DNA of 64,000 bases, taken from assembly GCA_963835585.1 (NCBI GenBank), contig CAWIGF010000001.1:34184-98183 (forward strand). Direction: 5' to 3'. Below, in pieces: positions 5,693 to 64,000 of this stretch; within the stretch, counting starts at the first letter, position 1, and every line of letters starts with the position of its first letter. This DNA comes from an uncultured Candidatus Woesearchaeota archaeon. Lineage in GTDB: Archaea > Nanobdellota > Nanobdellia > Woesearchaeales > UBA10107. A program made the position numbers and the translations under genes. The notes under the pieces were generated by a model, which was given only the letters and a program-made list of their open reading frames with translations, had not been told where the DNA came from and made no database searches.

Positions 5693-6112
5693 TTGGGCAT
5701 GAGCATATTCCATAAAATTAAAAACAAATTGACTGGCGATTCTGATTTTGAAATTCCTGAGGAAGTTGACAAGGATTTCCTTCATGTCGATTCTGAACAA
5801 CCAAATAGCAAGGCAAAAGTGGTTTTGCGACCTTATATTCTTGAAGATTTTGACGATGTAAAACCAATCCTTGACTCATTGAGAGAGGGTTACACTATTC
5901 CTTTGATAAATATAAGACCTCTAAAGGACAAAGATCTTGTCGAATTGAAGCGAGCAATAAACAAATTGAAGAAAACATGCGATGCAATCGAGGGAGATAT
6001 CGCAGGATTCGGAGAAGACTGGATCGCAGTTGTTCCCGCATTCGCTCAAATCTACAGAGAGAAGAAGGAATTGCCTGTCGCCGAGAAAGCTGAGCGATAC
6101 GACAGATACTAA
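5693..6112 (+). CDS. sepF: SepF-like cell division protein (DUF552)
   Basis: C-terminal core (VVLRPYILEDFDDVKPILDSLREGYTIPLINI ... DIAGFGEDWIAVVP) has typical SepF topology. ftsZ is present in the window. Confidence 0.55.
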   Translation: MGMSIFHKIKNKLTGDSDFEIPEEVDKDFLHVDSEQPNSKAKVVLRPYILEDFDDVKPILDSLREGYTIPLINIRPLKDKDLVELKRAINKLKKTCDAIEGDIAGFGEDWIAVVPAFAQIYREKKELPVAEKAERYDRY

Positions 6113-6199
6113 TTTTTCTGAAAAATTTTATTTGACAGAAATTGTCATGATAATTTCCTAATCACAACTTTTATAAATTTAATTCTTGGTATTTCGCTT

Positions 6200-6751
6200 A
6201 TGGCAGACGAAGAACCTGAAGTATTGTCCGGACAACCGTGTCCTTTCTGTCACCAGAGCACGCTTACATTAACTGAACAAAAAAAAGAAATCCCTTACTT
6301 CGGAGAAGTCTATGTATTTTCCATGAGCTGTGAGAACTGCAAATACCACAAAGCGGACTTGGAATCTGTTCAGAATCATGAACCGACGCGATTCACTCTT
6401 GAAGTCTCGAGCGAGGAAGACATGAACATACGGATCGTAAAAGCATCAAGCGCGACTGTAAAAATTCCTCACGTCGTCACAATAGAGCCGGGAGAAGCTG
6501 CCAACGGATACATAACAAATGTGGAAGGGCTGTTGAAGCGAGTGAAGTATCAGATTGAAACCGCTCGGGATGCTGCAGAAGAAGATGAGGAGATCACTAA
6601 AGCAAAGAATCTTCTTAAAAAATTAGGCAGAGTAATGTGGGGACAGGAGAAAATAAAGATAATACTTGAGGATCCTGCTGGAAACTCGGCAATCATTTCT
6701 GAGAAAGCTGTCAAGGAACCTTTGAAAGGAAAGAAAAAAGAAGAATCATAA
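6200..6751 (+). CDS. ZPR1-type zinc-finger protein
   Basis: Two CxxC pairs (CPFC ... CENC) followed by a ZPR1-like beta-rich domain, 183 aa. Confidence 0.65.
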   Translation: MADEEPEVLSGQPCPFCHQSTLTLTEQKKEIPYFGEVYVFSMSCENCKYHKADLESVQNHEPTRFTLEVSSEEDMNIRIVKASSATVKIPHVVTIEPGEAANGYITNVEGLLKRVKYQIETARDAAEEDEEITKAKNLLKKLGRVMWGQEKIKIILEDPAGNSAIISEKAVKEPLKGKKKEES

Positions 6752-10229: not shown

Positions 10230-10793
10230 TCAAGAAAAAGTAGTTTCTTTTTCTACGACAGAATCAATTGAAGTAACAGGAACTATTTGCGAAGAATTTC
10301 TTTTCTTCTGGTACCATTTATATCCAGATTTAAATCCAGGAATTGCATATTTTCTTGAGATATAAATCACATAATAGCTTACTGCAGCCCAGCCACTGAT
10401 ATCAAAACATATATCTGCGGCATCATGCAAAAAAGTAATTCTTATGGCATCTGGCAAGTGCCGCACATAGTCGAGATTTCCAACAAGTAATTTTACAGCG
10501 GGTTCTACTATATTATCAATAGCATACTCTTCTGCTTTCTCGAAAGCTTTTGTATAACGTGCGCTAAATGCGGCAGGAAGCATACCGACTTTAAGCAAAA
10601 TCGCCGGCAGTCCATGAACTGGACAACCAAGCGCATGGAGCGCATCAACTCGTATGGTTGGTAGACCAAGACGCCTAGCTACACTTCCCACAAGACCGAT
10701 CTTCTTTTTTTGAGCATCATGATTAGTTTCACATGCCGATATGTGTATATGTTTTTCTGCCATCATAAATCGGAAAGAAGACACACGCGACAT
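10230..10793 (-). CDS. Hypothetical protein with locally elevated GC, divergent from nikR
   Basis: 187 aa. Codon usage is visibly more GC-rich than surroundings, which suggests horizontal acquisition. No confident family assignment. Confidence 0.4.
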   Translation of the reverse strand: MSRVSSFRFMMAEKHIHISACETNHDAQKKKIGLVGSVARRLGLPTIRVDALHALGCPVHGLPAILLKVGMLPAAFSARYTKAFEKAEEYAIDNIVEPAVKLLVGNLDYVRHLPDAIRITFLHDAADICFDISGWAAVSYYVIYISRKYAIPGFKSGYKWYQKKRNSSQIVPVTSIDSVVEKETTFS

Positions 10794-35031: not shown

Positions 35032-35049
35032 ATATTTATTCGAAAAAAG

Positions 35050-35123
35050 TAGGCGGCAGGGGACTTGAACCCCCGATCTCCAATTTAGCGGACTGGCGAT
35101 CTATCCAACTAATCTAGCCGCCC
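35050..35123 (-). tRNA. tRNA with apparent GCT anticodon but class I architecture (short 5 nt variable loop)
   Basis: Minus strand: GGGCGGC-TA-GATT-AGTTGGATA-GATC-G-CCAGT-CCGCTAA-ATTGG-AGATC-GGGGG-TTCAAGT-CCCCT-GCCGCCT-A. C at position 33 is unusual. Confidence 0.5.
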
Positions 35124-57492: not shown

Positions 57493-58269
57493 ATGGCAAA
57501 GCAAACAGTTGAAGCTATGATTGCGGGCGGCAAAGCTAGCGCATCCCCTCCACTTGGACCAGCTCTTGGACCTACAGGACTCAACGTAGCTGAAGTCATA
57601 AAAAAAATTAATGAAAAAACAATAGCATTCAACGGTATGCAAGTGCCAGTAAAAGTAGTTTTTGATCCTTCTGATAAAACATTTGACATAACAGTTGGAA
57701 CTCCTCCTGCAAGTTCATTGCTGAAAGGAGAAGGTAAGATCGAATTGGGTTCCGGTTCCGCGAAATTGGACAAGGTTGCAGATTTACGAATAGAACAGAT
57801 AATCAAGGTCGCAAAGATGAAGGAAGATTCTCTCGCAGGACGAACACTCAAAGATAAAATAAAGGAAATCATTGGAACATGCTTGTCTATGGGAATTTTA
57901 GTGCAAGGAATGGACCCAAGAGACGCTATCAAGGCGGTAAATGCAGGAAAATATGACGCTCAGATCAAAGCAGAGAAGACAGAATTGACAGTTGAGGAAT
58001 TGAAAGCAATAGATGAGGAAAAGAAAAAACTCGCTGCAGAGTCGGAAAGACGACATGCACAAGAAGAGGCAAACGCAAACCAGATCATGAAGGAAATGGA
58101 AGGCAAGCCAACATCCACAATAAAGGCAAAGATGATAGAAGTGGGAATTTCGCGAATGGTTATCGACAAATTGCTCGGTCTTGGAAAAGCAGCAGCTGCG
58201 CCAGGAGCACCGGGAGCACCTGCACCAGCGGGCGCAAAACCAACTGCAGCAGCACCTGCTAAGAAATAA
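57493..58269 (+). CDS. rpl11: 50S ribosomal protein L11 with about 95 aa Ala/Pro/Lys-rich C-terminal extension
   Basis: N-terminal L11 signature (SASPPLGPALGPTGLNVAEV). C-terminal AAAPGAPGAPAPAGAKPTAAAPAKK. Confidence 0.85.
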   Translation: MAKQTVEAMIAGGKASASPPLGPALGPTGLNVAEVIKKINEKTIAFNGMQVPVKVVFDPSDKTFDITVGTPPASSLLKGEGKIELGSGSAKLDKVADLRIEQIIKVAKMKEDSLAGRTLKDKIKEIIGTCLSMGILVQGMDPRDAIKAVNAGKYDAQIKAEKTELTVEELKAIDEEKKKLAAESERRHAQEEANANQIMKEMEGKPTSTIKAKMIEVGISRMVIDKLLGLGKAAAAPGAPGAPAPAGAKPTAAAPAKK

Positions 58270-60192: not shown

Positions 60193-60790
60193 AACATTAT
60201 CAGTGATTGTCGGCATGGCACTTGTTGTATCTGTAATAGGGATGTTCAGTTTGTCTGATCATTTAAATCTAATAACAGGATTCGGAACTACGGGAACTGC
60301 GCAAGTCAATATCACAAAATCAGCTATCCTAAATGTTACTCAGCCTACGATGGATTTCGGAAACGGAACTATTTCCCCTGGCGCTAATTGCGTCATGTCA
60401 TCGCTTGACGTGTCAAGAGATCCCAATAATTGTTTCACTGCATCAAACGGCTTGAAAGATGCCACTAACAGCAGTTTCCATGCGCAGAATGTCGGAAACG
60501 TTGCATTGAATGTAACGGTAACTGATCTTTATTCAAATGCATCCGCGTTCTGGGGCGTTAATGGCGGAAACTACACATTTGAGTGCTTAGACAATGTGAC
60601 AAACAATGGTGCATCCGGGGAAGTAACAACATGGACGACGCCAAATTCCACTGCTCCACTGAAATGTTCACTTTACCTGAACTCAACATACTTGCAGAAC
60701 GAGTTCTTGTTGGCAATAAATATTTCGATCCCAACGACAGCATACGGTTTCAAGAACGACACATGGACATTCACAGCAACTCAGGCTTAA
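60173..60790 (+). CDS. Secreted or surface hypothetical protein
   Basis: N-terminal hydrophobic segment LSVIVGMALVVSVIGMFSL. Many sequons. Confidence 0.4.
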   Translation: MEDIPNKTLSVIVGMALVVSVIGMFSLSDHLNLITGFGTTGTAQVNITKSAILNVTQPTMDFGNGTISPGANCVMSSLDVSRDPNNCFTASNGLKDATNSSFHAQNVGNVALNVTVTDLYSNASAFWGVNGGNYTFECLDNVTNNGASGEVTTWTTPNSTAPLKCSLYLNSTYLQNEFLLAINISIPTTAYGFKNDTWTFTATQA

Positions 60791-62403
60791 TTCTTATTAG
60801 AATATTTCTTAAGGCTCATCTGTCCCTTTCTTTTTGTCTCGTTGATTCCTTCCATTTTATCACCGACTTGTTCCTTGACAGTTCTAGCCACGGATTCTCC
60901 CAATAATTGCTTTAATGTTCCGAAATCGATTTTCTTCACATCTCCCAAATCCTTGATACCGTTGTTGAACATTTTTCTCGCTCGAACCCTTCCTATTTCC
61001 TTTAGTTGCAAGAGTGTTAGCAGTTCCTCCTTGGCTCCGTATTTCATTCTTAGCCTGAGTTTGTTGAATTCTTTCGCGAACTCATGATGCTCGTTCATTT
61101 TTGCAAGCTCATGCCACGAATACAGCAGCCAGTCGGCAACATCTAGTTTTGCCCTGGATTCTCCCGGACGCACATCAAAATTCTCGAGCATGTACTCATC
61201 ATCCTTCTCGTCCATCCATTCCATGAAAAACTGCGTAGTCTTGATTGAATTAAGGAAATCATCGTATTCAGGCTCGAACATATCAGGTTCTTCCGTAAGA
61301 AGCTCGTCCTCGTGCTCAACGACCAATGCGGTGTACTCATTATTCTCTCTGGATTTGACATTGAGAAGAGGCCTCATTTCGAGCGTGTCTGAAATCATCT
61401 GGATTAGTGCAAAGGTGGTGTGCATCTTTGCCCCAAGTCCCTCGAGCAATTTGTGCGCGGTCAATGGATCTATGTACAGCTGTGCAACCCTCCTCCCTAT
61501 TTCTGTCGCATGGATTGCATCGTTTTGCATCTCATCCGCGGATACAAAATCACTTTGCTTTGTTTTTATGAACTTGAATTCGCTAAGGAGGCGTATCATC
61601 TTGTCGATGATCGTCTCAAGTTTCTTCATGTCCTCGAACTGATGCGCCCAGAATGTTTTCGAGAAAAAATTGAGAAGTTCCTTGCGCGATGACACGAATC
61701 CTGATGCAATCAAGCTGAGAACATATGTCCTTAGCACGGGTTCGACTGCGAGCTTTGACGTTATGTTCTCCGGTTCGCCATGCACGTAACGATCAGTGAT
61801 TTCTTCCCTCTCTTTTTCAGTGGATGTGATAACAATGCTTTCTCCTTCCGTATCGTATTTTGGCCTTCCTGCCCTGCCTGCCTGCTGCAGATATTCCAGG
61901 ACAGGAATGTAATTATATCCTCTCTGGCTGAATCTCTTCACATCCCTAATGATTGTCCTGAATGCCGGAAGATCGACTCCTGCTGCCAATGTCGGAGTAG
62001 CGCATATTATTTTTATTTTTCCGGTCCTGAAATTATCTTCAATTAATTCCTTCTGTTTTGATGCCAGTCCCGCATGATGGAATGCTATCTGATATTGCAC
62101 AAGTTCCGCAAGCTTCTCGCACTGCCTTGTCGGTTTGCTCAATACATGAAGAATAGTATTGCTTAATTCTGGATTTGTCTTTTGGTGATTCTTTCTGAGA
62201 AATTTGACAATGTCTTCCGCAACTTTTTCGGCAGATCTTTTTGCGTTCACAAAAACCAGTGCCTGCTTGCTCTTTTCCAACGTGTCTAGAACGACATTGA
62301 CGACATCTTCGTTTGTCTTTTCAGGAATGGTGAAGGACTTAGTCATTTCTTGCGATGATCTCCAGCAATAACGGAAATTCCTTGTATTCGGATCCTTTTT
62401 CAA
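60787..62403 (-). pseudogene. hel308: Hel308/Ski2-like helicase lacking the N-terminal RecA1 ATPase domain
   Basis: The protein begins within RecA2 (ALVFVNAKRSAEKVAEDI...). Helicase C motifs IICATPTLAAGVDLP and QQAGRAGR, then WH/ratchet/HLH domains. No Walker A or DExH box. Confidence 0.65.
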
Positions 62404-62899
62404 GATTGAAATGTCCCTGCCCTTTTTTCACGATCAGCTCCCCTCCTAATTGCTTGGATAGATATTGCGCATGCTCGAGTGGACAATATGGATCATTATC
62501 AGAATGTATGAATATGAATTTCTTTGCATGTTTTTTTATTTTCTCAAAGTCAAACTTTTCTTCGAACAATCCATCAAGACTTTTCTCTCCAAGATTGTCT
62601 TTGAATGATCCTACTAGGATACACGTGTTGACAACAATGTCTTTTGGAAGGTGCTGCAGTAATCCAAGAATTGCAACTGCTCCTGAAGAATGCCCTATTA
62701 TGAACGAATCAGAATTGAATTTCCATTCTTTGTTTTTAAAAATGAATTCATTGTATTTTTTTATGTTTGGTGCATCTGCACCAGGCAAGTCCGGACTCCA
62801 TACTCTCCAGCCTTTCTTCTTAAGTTCTGTTTTCAGCCACGGGAACCAATTTCCCTGAGATGAACTTCCTGTTCCGTGGAGTATGAGTGCATTTTTCAT
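62339..62899 (-). CDS. Alpha/beta-hydrolase fold esterase-like protein
   Basis: Nucleophile elbow GHSSGA, plus a downstream Asp and His. Confidence 0.55.
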   Translation of the reverse strand: MKNALILHGTGSSSQGNWFPWLKTELKKKGWRVWSPDLPGADAPNIKKYNEFIFKNKEWKFNSDSFIIGHSSGAVAILGLLQHLPKDIVVNTCILVGSFKDNLGEKSLDGLFEEKFDFEKIKKHAKKFIFIHSDNDPYCPLEHAQYLSKQLGGELIVKKGQGHFNLEKGSEYKEFPLLLEIIARND

Positions 62900-63339
62900 A
62901 AATTCTCCAACAATTTGCTGATTATCTTTTGTTTAAGCTTCTCAGAAATTTCAATATTTCCTTCCCTGTCGTAGTACTGCCCAAATTTGGAATCCGAGAA
63001 TTTTGTTCCATCAATTACGACATCATGATCGTAACGAGGAAGGAAATGCCAATGAACATGAGGTTGTGGTGGGTTTTCTTTGTATGCGTCATTCATCAAA
63101 CAAGTCCAATTGAACATAGTAGCATCAAATGACTTTTTCGTAGCATTTTCAAGTTGCTTTGCTATCCCGAAAAAATCCAAGATCTCATTTTGCTCAAGTT
63201 CAGAAAGATTTCCACAGTGTCTTTTCAAAACAACAATACACCTGCCAAGCTGGCTTTGATTCATTCCAAGAAGAATGTTCCAGTACTTTGTTTCTTTTAT
63301 GAAATTAATCTTTTCTTTCTTGCAAAATATACATGCCAT
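62896..63339 (-). CDS. HIT-like protein
   Basis: HVHWHFLP histidine triad variant. ATGA overlap with the esterase. Confidence 0.55.
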   Translation of the reverse strand: MACIFCKKEKINFIKETKYWNILLGMNQSQLGRCIVVLKRHCGNLSELEQNEILDFFGIAKQLENATKKSFDATMFNWTCLMNDAYKENPPQPHVHWHFLPRYDHDVVIDGTKFSDSKFGQYYDREGNIEISEKLKQKIISKLLENL

Positions 63340-63377
63340 GTTGTTTTGTGTTTATTTTCCATTTAATAAAGCTAATG

Positions 63378-63695
63378 CCGGGTTGTCCTTTGCTAAAAAA
63401 GTGGTGCGCCCCCCGTGACTTTCAGTGAACTCATTTCTGAGTCCGACGTTTGAACACGGGACCGTTATCGGTGTTTTGTAACACTCTCGATGTCTAGCCT
63501 TGCTGAGCAAGGATATCAGTTTCACTTCCGCTTACTTTCGCACGGCGGAACGAGTGCTCCATTGCCCCGCATCCCGCAAGCATTTGCGGGGAGCAGTCCA
63601 GGCTAAGCTAGGGGCGCACGTTAACAAGAAGGAAGTAGCTCATTTTTAAAGGTTTCCTATAAACCGCAGTACCAAAACCCACAGGACAACCGCGT
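63378..63695 (+). ncRNA. GC-rich structured RNA of about 320 nt, candidate SRP RNA (7S)
   Basis: Local GC far above the genome background. Terminal helix GGTTGTCCT (63381-63389) pairs with AGGACAACC (63683-63691). Alu-like GUGGUGCGCC and UGUAAC near the 5' end. Helix-8-like GAAGGAAGUAGC in the 3' half. Confidence 0.45.
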
Positions 63696-63732
63696 GTGAG
63701 GCTTATAAGTCATAAATTCTATTTATTCTTGA

Positions 63733-64000
63733 TGACGAAAGTATTTACAAAAGAACAAATCAAAGAAATACGAGAGATTTATCTTCGTTTGAAATCAGTA
63801 CACAAAGTAAGTAAAAAACTTCATATCTCAATAAGCACTGCATACAAATATGCTGGTGATTTAGCTCCGCACCAAAACATCATAACTTCATTAAAAACAA
63901 AGAATGAGCGATTAATTGGTATTTATGTTGGATTGTGGATGGGAGATGGAACGCAATTTTATAATGGTCGTTTCAATATTAAAATTTGTAGTAATAAAAA
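63733..64000 (+). CDS. LAGLIDADG-family homing endonuclease with N-terminal HTH (partial, runs off the window)
   Basis: Segment LIGIYVGLWMGDGT is a LAGLIDADG motif. N-terminal HTH-like KEQIKEIREIYLRLKSVHKVSKKLHISISTAYKY. Confidence 0.5.

Follow-up and report, generated by a model that had tools for sequence, protein, structure and literature searches.

The tRNAs of Thermoproteales and Cyanidioschyzon merolae carry bulge-helix-bulge (BHB) introns in the D-loop, anticodon stem, variable region and T-loop, and in multi-intron tRNA precursors a protein splicing endonuclease removes the introns, with strict and relaxed motifs coexisting (PMC4033280, PMC3728597). Reviews put the highest number of introns in a single archaeal tRNA gene at three (PMC4033280, PMC3728597); in DPANN archaea, disrupted tRNAs are suspected and poorly catalogued (PMC5829648). 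Phage T4 encodes SegB, a GIY-YIG homing endonuclease whose free-standing gene lies among clustered tRNA genes (PMC2330249). Fungal mitochondrial mobile ORF elements consist of an endonuclease gene and a duplicated host-gene 3′ end, as at Allomyces atp6 and Glomus atp6, atp9, cox2 and nad3 (PMC3630166).

We analysed a 64,000-nt stretch of woesearchaeal DNA (the whole of it hereafter termed the window) and conclude with good confidence that it holds, near one end, a tRNA-Ile(GAU) gene with five BHB introns and, adjacent to it, an endonuclease cassette of a kind that lives at tRNA-Ile and tRNA-Asn 3′ ends. As in Thermoproteales and C. merolae, canonical and non-canonical introns and strict and relaxed motifs occur in one precursor; unlike those tRNAs (maximum three introns), this one has five, in a DPANN host. 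The endonuclease gene resembles SegB in standing free between tRNA genes, in neither intron nor intein, and in a presence/absence polymorphism between relatives that suggests inheritance with the flanking tRNA region. In contrast to SegB, it encodes a putative LAGLIDADG endonuclease with a helix-turn-helix (HTH) domain, resides in a cellular archaeal chromosome, and belongs to a family that lies antisense to the tRNAs, usually with an 18-nt overlap with the tRNA 3′ end. With the archaeal enzymes I-DmoI and I-Tsp061I it shares a two-motif monomeric fold and catalytic acidic residues, but these enzymes sit in rRNA BHB introns and have no N-terminal HTH, whereas the window protein is free-standing beside tRNA genes. 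Several related loci (L015, L026, L013, L002 and the scar at L118) combine a replacement 3′ end with a far-side relic, as fungal mobile ORF elements do; here, however, the host gene is a tRNA rather than a protein-coding gene, the ORF is antisense, and the window cassette lies between two complete tRNAs with no relic seen.

The predicted tRNA-Ile(GAU) gene and its introns

The segment stands out by its composition, as first noticed: GC content is 0.52-0.545 over 63400-63699 (200-nt windows) against a window mean of 0.392, with a peak of 0.62 at 63477-63653 (100-nt windows). The original prediction, a structured RNA of about 320 nt akin to signal recognition particle (SRP) RNA, was right that a structural RNA gene is present at the site. 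From its sequence, the GC-rich segment is a tRNA-Ile(GAU) gene on the minus strand; it has a TATA box of its own, encodes the CCA, ends at a T6 terminator and is interrupted by five BHB introns. Its parts are as follows, promoter and terminator being read directly from the letters.

63643-63650 (minus): TTTAAAAA, the tRNA-Ile gene's TATA box, 25 nt ahead of tRNA position 1
63402-63617 (minus): pre-tRNA-Ile(GAU) gene, 216 nt including the encoded CCA (63404-63402); six exons, five introns
63562-63597 (minus): intron 1, 36 nt, D-loop after G19; relaxed BHB
63521-63550 (minus): intron 2, 30 nt, position 30/31; strict hBHBh′
63492-63513 (minus): intron 3, 22 nt, canonical position 37/38
63465-63485 (minus): intron 4, 21 nt, position 43/44; HBh′ motif
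63419-63448 (minus): intron 5, 30 nt, T-loop, position 59/60; strict hBHBh′
63395-63400 (minus): T6 run, an archaeal-type terminator, directly after CCA and one C

Removal of the five introns in silico yields a 77-nt perfect cloverleaf that ARAGORN identifies as tRNA-Ile(gat) with all stems paired: stems of 7, 4, 5 and 5 bp, a 7-nt anticodon loop, G18G19 and UUCAAAU. The unspliced genomic sequence is called by neither ARAGORN nor the Rfam tRNA model, a miss to be expected of standard models when a gene has five introns. The spliced product is identical at 68 of 77 positions, ungapped, to each of the intron-free syntenic tRNA-Ile genes of two related loci (L119 and L121), and comparison with 13 relatives revealed compensatory changes in 13 of the 21 stem pairs. 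The AAACCTTTAAAAA box and its 25-nt spacing recur in loci L010 and L011, where the BRE/TATA box is conserved.

All five introns have a 4-bp central helix (3/4 in intron 3) between two 3-nt bulges. The motif of intron 1 is weak, with central helix GCCU/GGGC and bulges GGA and AAU, where the central helix is joined by 1 bp only; its removal restores a D-loop, AGCCUGGUG, the same as that of intron-free relatives, and the partial gene of L011 has an insertion at the same position. Intron 2, whose complete central helix (4/4) is flanked by an outer helix of 2 bp and an inner one of 5 bp, occupies a position that also holds introns in L010, L008 and L015. Intron 3 has an inner helix of 6 bp and, once intron 2 is removed, an outer helix of 5 bp formed by the anticodon stem; most relatives have an intron at 37/38 with the 3′ end ..AGAC. 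Intron 4 (central helix 4/4, inner helix 5 bp) ends in CCGAUAA, as do introns in L008 and L015. An alternative boundary of intron 4, giving the variable loop AGGUC, was rejected for one giving CGGUC on account of BHB geometry and the intron-free orthologues; CGGUC is the variable loop of intron-free L119. Intron 5 combines a complete central helix (4/4) with an outer helix of 7 bp and an inner one of 2 bp, and has counterparts at 59/60 in the tRNA-Ile of L008 and in the neighbouring tRNA-Asn.

By analogy with the established archaeal pathway, the tRNA splicing endonuclease would excise the introns and the RtcB ligase would join the exons to give a standard 77-nt tRNA. Five introns in one archaeal tRNA gene exceed the published maximum of three, and a literature search, incomplete in coverage and so not proof of absence, turned up no archaeal tRNA described with four or five introns. 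That such a gene escapes Rfam and ARAGORN shows why DPANN tRNA sets look incomplete.

A LAGLIDADG-HTH protein family at tRNA 3′ ends

An ORF had been placed just downstream of the proposed RNA, and indeed begins at 63732, 32 nt past the end then assigned to that RNA. It encodes, as originally reported, an HTH, which is N-terminal, and a LAGLIDADG motif (GIYVGLWMGDGT at 63918-63953). The features around it, of which its TATA-like box was read from sequence, are listed below.

62339-62899: hydrolase gene, which with the HIT gene forms a separate insertion; in relatives the helicase gene directly follows tRNA-Ile
62896-63339 (minus): HIT-family gene, downstream of tRNA-Ile and outside the element
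63362-63370: TATA box of the HIT gene
63381-63392 (minus): CAAAGGACAACC, motif copy 2, beyond the tRNA terminator and some 10 nt ahead of the HIT gene TATA box
63680-63691 (plus): CACAGGACAACC, motif copy 1, some 10 nt ahead of the ORF TATA box and starting 52 nt before the ATG; exact match
63702-63709 (plus): CTTATAAG, the LAGLIDADG ORF's TATA-like box, 22 nt ahead of the ATG
63732-64000 (plus): 5′ part of the HTH-LAGLIDADG gene, with the HTH at about 63750-63863 and the first LAGLIDADG motif at 63918-63953

The ORF runs 532 nt past the end of the window. Extension of the contig, proposed with the original prediction, recovered it whole and intact in a longer contig (L001, 8808-9608, minus strand) as a 266-aa protein with a second LAGLIDADG motif; the two motifs read GLWMGDG and GLILSDG. 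Asp72 and Asp173 are invariant in 42 sequences, as are G-D-G, other motif residues and two lysines. The AlphaFold model (pLDDT 94.3) contains the alpha-beta-beta-alpha-beta-beta-alpha fold twice. Foldseek ranks as its best counterparts TliVMA (an intein endonuclease), I-DmoI (target TM about 0.7) and I-Tsp061I, with a probability of 1.00 to I-DmoI, I-Tsp061I and intein endonucleases; WhiA is also among the fold matches. Sequence identity to I-DmoI and I-Tsp061I is only 12-16%. The window protein has no match to the PF14528 profile at E<=1, and 32 of the 42 relatives match it at E<=0.01. Sequence and model together indicate that the ORF is a genuine LAGLIDADG protein, intact, monomeric and double-motif, with an extra N-terminal HTH. 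We found 48 homologues, all metagenomic, and 20 homologous loci in Woesearchaeota/Nanoarchaeota genomes among 185,579 species genomes. Viral contigs gave one weak partial match, and we judged the family not to be viral.

Nearly all loci, 29 by count, have the ORF converging on a tRNA-Ile(GAU) or tRNA-Asn(GUU) gene. In 13 of the loci listed (12 distinct) it overlaps the tRNA 3′ end by exactly 18 nt, which places the ORF stop codon antisense to T-loop positions 55-57. The order varies between Asn-Ile-ORF in some loci and Asn-ORF-Ile in others; in the window genome the ORF lies between tRNA-Asn and tRNA-Ile, both complete. The family, apparently mobile as judged from these sequences, adjoins the 3′ ends of tRNA-Ile(GAU) and tRNA-Asn(GUU) in DPANN archaea; a literature search, of partial coverage and not proof of absence, found no report of such an endonuclease-tRNA arrangement.

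The TATA-like box upstream of the ORF has the same layout in nine loci, and its 22-nt spacing from the ATG fits a leaderless mRNA. In 15 of the 29 loci listed (13 distinct), the motif occupies -50 to -57 relative to the ATG. In empty-site relatives it lies between the tRNA-Ile 3′ end and the TATA box of the helicase gene, and its presence at these cassette-free promoters marks it as a host element rather than a cassette-specific end. A further match at 10617 (1 mismatch), inside a protein-coding ORF and at chance-level frequency, was discarded.

A metagenome scan anchored on the HIT protein yielded 80 loci with no LAGLIDADG gene and no upstream tRNA-Ile; HIT adjacency is therefore not conserved and provides no empty-site test. 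The helicase protein, used as anchor instead, recovered syntenic empty-site loci. In three syntenic relatives (helicase 68-71% identical) the Asn and Ile genes are free of introns and stand 8-14 nt apart, and the ORF is absent, which bears out the suggestion that the free-standing gene could mark a mobile insertion, although the structural RNA beside it is not SRP RNA as then supposed. The same site is occupied in the window, L010 and L011, empty in L119 and L121, and scarred in L118, where the ORF is missing but the tRNA 3′ end is present in duplicate alongside a degenerate, inverted copy of the motif; the empty-site genomes and the occupied L010 and L011 are equally far from the window. Beyond the ORF, relics of tRNA 3′ ends were found in L015 (16/17), L026 (16/17), L013 (12/17) and L002 (11/17). 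The tRNA 3′ end is duplicated on both sides in L015, L026, L013/L023, L002 and the L118 scar, and no duplication was seen in the window, L010 and most others; the search for such relics was negative or at chance level in most loci, the window included, where no tRNA-Asn 3′ end relic is recognisable. Decayed ORF copies are found in L017, L026, L032, L034 and L035. The empty sites, scar, relics and decayed copies point to a mobile, free-standing homing-endonuclease cassette.

Of the competing explanations, the strongest, in our view unlikely, is that the LAGLIDADG-HTH protein is a domesticated WhiA-like regulator that binds CACNGGACA upstream of TATA boxes, both that of its own gene and that of the HIT or helicase gene, and no longer moves. 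WhiA, a bacterial regulator derived from a LAGLIDADG endonuclease, likewise joins a LAGLIDADG scaffold to an HTH, and appears among the fold matches; for the window protein, the conserved promoter-proximal motif could be a binding site. For the ORF and for the host gene next to it alike, the motif keeps a fixed place some 10 nt ahead of the TATA box. Within the window clade the ORF is 56-61% identical between members and neighbouring host genes 42-79%; that the ORF has stayed intact over such host-gene-like divergence fits long vertical inheritance, possibly with a host function. WhiA, however, has lost the catalytic residues and has a C-terminal HTH, whereas here the HTH is N-terminal and both catalytic Asp residues, with others including the two lysines, are kept in all 42 sequences. 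The patchy distribution (20 DPANN loci in 185,579 species genomes), with empty sites, a scar and pseudogenes in close relatives, and the conservation of the motif in genomes without the protein also argue against a regulator.

It is improbable that the ORF is, or recently was, inside a giant T-loop (59/60) BHB intron of the tRNA, the present layouts being rearranged derivatives. The relic in L015 keeps a T-loop intron 3′ end before its 3′ exon (..CTCGGAAAG followed by TCTCAGCGGGGCCA), 59/60 introns occur in the ORF-flanking tRNAs of the window clade, and the closest structures are archaeal intron- and intein-encoded enzymes; yet the ORF is antisense to the tRNAs in all loci but L033 (the sole exception, where tRNA-Ile lies upstream on the ORF strand), and wherever a tRNA was recovered among the loci examined it was complete without the ORF. 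The window ORF itself has neither an intron nor an intein location: it is free-standing and antisense between two complete tRNA genes.

Other readings of the GC-rich segment

There is very little probability that the five-intron tRNA-Ile is a decaying pseudogene, with the real tRNA-Ile(GAU) gene elsewhere in a genome of which 64 kb plus 13 kb was inspected. An unprecedented intron number and the weak BHB motif of intron 1 would suit such decay, but none of the 21 stem pairs is broken, the loops keep their conserved nucleotides, promoter, CCA and terminator are undamaged, every intron keeps its BHB core, and the gene occupies the orthologous position of the relatives' tRNA-Ile gene.

The SRP reading had tied itself to an Rfam assignment. 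The region was assigned to no family, and the reading is thereby refuted on its own terms: at gathering score the whole window held no SRP, RNase P or intron family, at E<=10 positions 63250-63800 had no SRP (RF01857), RNase P or group I/II intron match on either strand, and at E<=1 the longer contig L001 had no SRP, RNase P or intron match. These searches returned chance snoRNA and sRNA matches only. The other ground named for refutation, a broken ORF or one short of its second motif, does not hold here. The strings taken for SRP motifs, backed by no covariance model, have other origins: GUGGUGCGCC reads antisense to the tRNA 3′ end with its CCA, and GAAGGAAGUAGC antisense to the leader between the tRNA TATA box and the tRNA 5′ end. 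The segment matches archaeal SRP RNA (RF01857) in its originally proposed length and in being GC-rich in an AT-rich genome, but differs in having no model match on either strand and in lacking, on one transcript, helix 8 with its GNAR loop and internal loops and the Alu-domain loops. Folding as one 323-nt RNA gave z = -1.9 for the plus strand and z = -3.2 for the minus strand, both weak and uninformative; a plus-strand RNA receives no support from it.

The perfect complementarity between GGTTGTCCT (63381-63389) and AGGACAACC (63683-63691), described as a 9-bp terminal helix, is real and sits within a 27-nt inverted repeat (70%). It is not an RNA helix: we rejected that interpretation for two inverted copies of the promoter-proximal motif in two divergent promoters, those of the LAGLIDADG ORF and the HIT gene. 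What actually closes the RNA is its acceptor stem, in which 63404-63412 pairs with 63611-63619. For RNase P RNA, CR-I/CR-V and the P4 pairing were sought by eye on both strands, with no consistent partner strand. On the longer contig, Rpr2, an RNase P protein, is encoded at a distance of 3.7 kb. A structured RNA of about 320 nt on the plus strand (SRP RNA, RNase P RNA or, as also suggested, another ribozyme) can be set aside despite the short SRP-like strings and the nearby Rpr2 gene, for no covariance model matches at E<=10 on either strand, the plus strand folds no better than shuffled sequence, and the five-intron minus-strand tRNA-Ile(GAU) with its promoter and the motif copies accounts for every nucleotide.

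Proposed movement of the cassette and the tRNA introns

Returning to the mobile cassette, we propose a small unit of about 1.1 kb, consisting of motif, TATA box and ORF, with the endonuclease as cargo, whose site in Woesearchaeota/Nanoarchaeota is the 3′ end of tRNA-Ile(GAU) or tRNA-Asn(GUU) on the opposite strand. The enzyme would cut cassette-free alleles near the tRNA 3′ end or near the helicase-promoter motif, and repair would then copy the cassette in. At the tRNA-Ile site, a replacement tRNA 3′ end would arrive with the cassette and the old 3′ end would stay behind as a relic; the new promoter now used by tRNA-Ile may likewise have been brought by the cassette. The HTH would bind the CACNGGACA motif, for targeting or autoregulation, with CACNGGACAAC as the candidate form of its putative binding site. 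Against this model, a cut target located entirely within the tRNA would persist in alleles that already have the cassette.

For this new family of LAGLIDADG-HTH proteins, which resides at the 3′ ends of two particular tRNA genes, nature offers alleles of every state: occupied, empty, scarred and decayed. The HTH tethered to a LAGLIDADG core may also serve as a scaffold for long-site nucleases.

A more speculative matter is whether the cassette has a causal connection with the number of introns in the tRNA genes beside it, and we think such a link doubtful. It could arise in two ways. BHB introns in tRNA-Ile and tRNA-Asn may confer immunity, as they would break the enzyme's DNA site and leave the mature tRNA unchanged; an idea of Randau and Soll, as cited in PMC4033280, is that disrupted tRNA genes impede mobile-element integration. 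Alternatively, the introns may hitch-hike, spreading between genomes in the co-conversion tract of the cassette. The origin and spread of archaeal tRNA introns thereby become testable, as introns that either block cleavage by the enzyme or travel with it.

Exon co-conversion from a common donor was considered and is unsupported, since the window exons are no closer to the occupied L010 (64/74) than to the empty L119 (68/77). Introns and cassette occur together: tRNA-Ile(GAU) has one to five introns in 24 of 25 cassette-associated genes versus 0 of 4 cassette-free ones, and within the window clade the occupied loci have two introns in tRNA-Asn and one to five in tRNA-Ile, the empty loci none.

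Identity and structure of the tRNA-Ile(GAU) gene

The segment at 63400–63699 is GC-rich, as the original prediction held (0.52–0.545 in 200-nt windows versus a window mean of 0.392, with a peak of 0.62 at 63477–63653). Its interpretation as an SRP RNA is refuted: Rfam yielded no relevant family, SRP, RNase P and introns included, in the whole window at the gathering score or in 63250–63800 at E ≤ 10, and the segment is a minus-strand tRNA gene. RNase P RNA, suggested as an alternative, and intron-type RNA were likewise missing from Rfam scans of the window and of L001, a longer contig that overlaps the window end (no relevant match at E ≤ 1). Because L001 encodes the RNase P protein subunit Rpr2 (5981–6286, 3.7 kb from the tRNA cluster), RNase P RNA is expected elsewhere. 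Folded as one RNA, the plus strand did not outperform shuffled sequence (z = −1.9), and the minus strand did so only slightly (z = −3.2).

Querying the segment against the loci of 48 homologues of the adjoining LAGLIDADG protein yielded short matches downstream of the open reading frame (ORF), which are 5′ ends of intron-bearing tRNA genes on the opposite strand. The window gene was read from the sequence after this pattern, and its predicted introns were recovered by a scan for bulge-helix-bulge (BHB) geometry (4-bp helix between two 3-nt bulges, cut after the second bulge base; hBHBh′, strict form).

Features of the tRNA-Ile(GAU) gene
63650–63643, minus strand: TATA box TTTAAAAA, 25 nt upstream of the tRNA 5′ end
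63617–63402, minus strand: tRNA-Ile(GAU) gene
63597–63562, minus strand: intron 1, 36 nt, in the D-loop after G19; central helix GCCU/GGGC only, plus 1 bp
63550–63521, minus strand: intron 2, 30 nt, at 30/31; strict hBHBh′
63513–63492, minus strand: intron 3, 22 nt, at 37/38; 3/4 central pairs, 6-bp inner helix, anticodon stem as outer helix
63485–63465, minus strand: intron 4, 21 nt, at 43/44; HBh′
63448–63419, minus strand: intron 5, 30 nt, at 59/60; strict, 7-bp outer helix

The acceptor stem is GCGCCCC..GGGGCGC with discriminator A, and CCA is encoded, followed by C and T6. ARAGORN made no call on the unspliced DNA and identified the spliced 77-mer as tRNA-Ile(gat) with all stems paired. 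Spliced tRNA-Ile sequences from 13 loci gave a cloverleaf in which 13 of 21 pairs show compensatory changes. The spliced product aligned without gaps to the intron-free syntenic tRNA-Ile(GAU) of two sites that lack the ORF, L119 and L121 (68/77 identical to each), and this alone, without the BHB rule, fixes all ten splice junctions; its D-loop is that of L119 and the variable loop CGGUC is also the same. Together, these data show the identity, strand and exon–intron structure of the gene, whose transcript would be spliced by the archaeal endonuclease and ligase.

Positional homologues of introns 2, 3, 4 and 5 are present in distant family loci, intron 1 is also found in L011, and the intron 4 3′ end CCGAUAA is common to the window and two of the distant loci, L008 and L015. 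A maximum of three introns is known for archaeal tRNA (PMC4033280) and for tRNA of Cyanidioschyzon (PMC3728597), and we found no report of an archaeal tRNA with four or five introns in the literature that could be searched; the window tRNA-Ile is a new extreme of multi-intron archaeal tRNA. DPANN tRNA sets are incomplete, probably through undetected disrupted genes (PMC5829648). A further hidden multi-intron tRNA in these archaea, tRNA-Lys(UUU) with introns of 28 and 21 nt, immediately precedes a HIT homologue on an unrelated metagenome contig (L049 3372–3494, plus strand).

The LAGLIDADG–HTH protein and its coupling to tRNA genes

The ORF starts at 63732 (plus strand) and its product carries an HTH and GIYVGLWMGDGT, as originally predicted. 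Exact-protein look-up of the neighbouring HIT gene retrieved L001 (13.9 kb; 100% identity over the 391-nt overlap), and this extension supplied the full endonuclease gene, encoding 266 aa with a second motif, GLILSDG. Pfam returned only a weak HTH for the window protein; 32 of 42 relatives matched PF14528 and some HTH_38. The motif aspartates D72 and D173, the G-D-G cores and two lysines were invariant in 42 sequences. The AlphaFold model (pLDDT 94.3) shows an HTH-bearing protein whose two-motif LAGLIDADG fold is intact: an N-terminal domain of three helices is joined by a lower-confidence linker to a double alpha-beta-beta-alpha-beta-beta-alpha core. Best Foldseek matches were the archaeal intein/intron endonucleases TliVMA, I-DmoI (target TM about 0.7) and I-Tsp061I, with WhiA ranked lower. 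We infer endonuclease activity, a homing mechanism and a target site for this protein. The genome collection contributed 20 loci, exclusively from Woesearchaeota, Nanoarchaeota or DPANN bins with similar labels, and the viral contigs searched held none.

A spliced-alignment search of 29 loci showed family-wide physical coupling of the ORF to tRNA 3′ ends. The ORF is convergent with tRNA-Ile(GAU) in most loci, and with tRNA-Asn(GUU) in L013, L019 and the window clade (including the window, L010 and L011). The tRNA and ORF ends overlap by exactly 18 nt in 13 listed loci (12 distinct); the stop codon is thereby antisense to T-loop positions 55–57, and the shared C-terminal sequence ..LKYGPxxI to the acceptor strand. 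The window ORF stops 1 nt from the 3′ end of a tRNA missed by both ARAGORN and Rfam:

L001 8675–8806 (about 64534–64665 in extended window coordinates, past the window end), plus strand: tRNA-Asn(GUU) with two introns, one beside the anticodon loop (about 38/39) and one strict BHB at 59/60

The setting resembles that of T4 SegB, an endonuclease gene in a phage tRNA cluster (PMC2330249).

Empty, scarred and decayed loci

Three syntenic loci, reached through close homologues of the window helicase gene (68–71% identical), share the L001 gene order: UPF0113, a 409-aa gene, Rpr2, three further genes, a Dph2 fragment, a 140-aa membrane protein, a gap and the helicase. The Dph2 (diphthamide synthase) homologue consists of small consecutive ORFs of about 90–100 aa instead of one gene (L001 7647–8221; also in L010, L011 and L118–L121), a split kept in all six relatives. 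The L119 and L121 gaps contain tRNA-Asn without introns, a spacer of 8 nt and tRNA-Ile with CCA, likewise without introns, followed by the motif CACAAGACAAC or CCACAGGACAAC, a TATA box and the ATG of the helicase; tblastn detected no LAGLIDADG gene there (E > 2). L118, with a 14-nt spacer, bears a scar: full tRNA-Ile, about 60 nt to a degenerate inverted motif, the tRNA 3′ end again, and the native motif with the helicase promoter. The six genomes are about equidistant from one another (membrane protein 37–46% identical, Dph2 fragment 64–83%).

Relic tRNA 3′ ends lie just past the ORF promoter in L015 and L026 (16/17; 0/300 shuffles), L013/L023 (12/17) and L002 (11/17), an architecture like that of fungal mitochondrial mobile ORFs, which supply a replacement 3′ gene end (PMC3630166). 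Decayed ORF copies carry a stop codon (L017) or frameshifts (L032, L034), or are fragmentary (L035) or truncated (L026). The cassette (motif, TATA box and ORF) follows tRNA-Ile in L002 and L005 and is flanked by tRNA-Asn and tRNA-Ile in L010, L011 and the window. Presence and absence, scar, relics and pseudogenes are thus all shown, and together match the life cycle expected for a homing endonuclease gene, supporting the mobile insertion suggested originally. Two points speak against a purely selfish ORF: within the window clade it and the host genes have diverged to roughly the same degree, and a target wholly inside the tRNA would persist in occupied alleles. The cassette is a new variant of free-standing homing-endonuclease gene, tied to tRNA genes.

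Cassette-associated tRNA-Ile genes had introns at 24 of 25 loci (0 to 5 each) and four cassette-free ones (L118, L119, L121 and L088) had none, in a small sample of loci that are not phylogenetically independent. Within the window clade, the two tRNAs flanking the site have introns where it is occupied and none where it is empty. Exon similarity gave no sign of co-conversion from a common donor, and we regard the unexplained correlation as a candidate reading, not a finding.

The promoter-proximal motif and neighbouring genes

Of 29 listed loci, 15 (13 distinct) have the motif CACNGGACA(A/T)C, which begins 50–57 nt ahead of the ATG and about 10 nt upstream of the TATA box; diverged copies occur in others. 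The motif is a host promoter-proximal element, because in cassette-free genomes it precedes the helicase gene with unchanged spacing to the TATA box. The cassette carries an inverted copy.

Motif copies in the window
63381–63392: native copy, now preceding the HIT gene
63680–63691: cassette copy, preceding the ORF

These copies bracket tRNA-Ile, and GGTTGTCCT (63381–63389) pairs with AGGACAACC (63683–63691) over 9 bp, within a 27-nt inverted repeat (70%); the complementarity originally noted is real, and reflects two inverted motif copies instead of an RNA terminal helix. The inverted pair recurs in L010, and in L002 around its relic. As to the motif's putative role, the HTH may bind it, for targeting or for autorepression; among homing endonucleases, autorepression has a precedent in I-TevI. 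Its CCAGTG core is tandemly duplicated in L015 (GACCAGTGACCAGTGG, about 2830–2850) and upstream of the ORF in L028 (TGTCCAGTGTCCAGTG).

HIT and alpha/beta-hydrolase genes (62339–63339, minus strand) separate tRNA-Ile from the helicase in this genome only; in L010 and L118–L121 the helicase follows tRNA-Ile directly. Relative to those loci, the two genes are a second insertion at the same spot, and what was the promoter motif and TATA box of the helicase now drives them. The helicase (60787–62346, minus strand; 519 aa) is the C-terminal part only of a Hel308/Ski2-like protein (Helicase_C, HTH_61, domain 4) without the DEAD/RecA1 domain, a short form widespread in Woesearchaeota (7675 matches, E ≤ 1e-30); the L005 homologue contains an intein with its own LAGLIDADG domain. 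Elsewhere in the window, a 75-nt tRNA (35049–35123, minus strand) is called Ser(GCU) by ARAGORN but lacks a long variable arm, and its position 33 is C, not U. A ribosomal protein L11 homologue (57493–58269, plus strand; 258 aa) has a long charged, Ala/Pro-rich C-terminal extension, which is unusual for L11.
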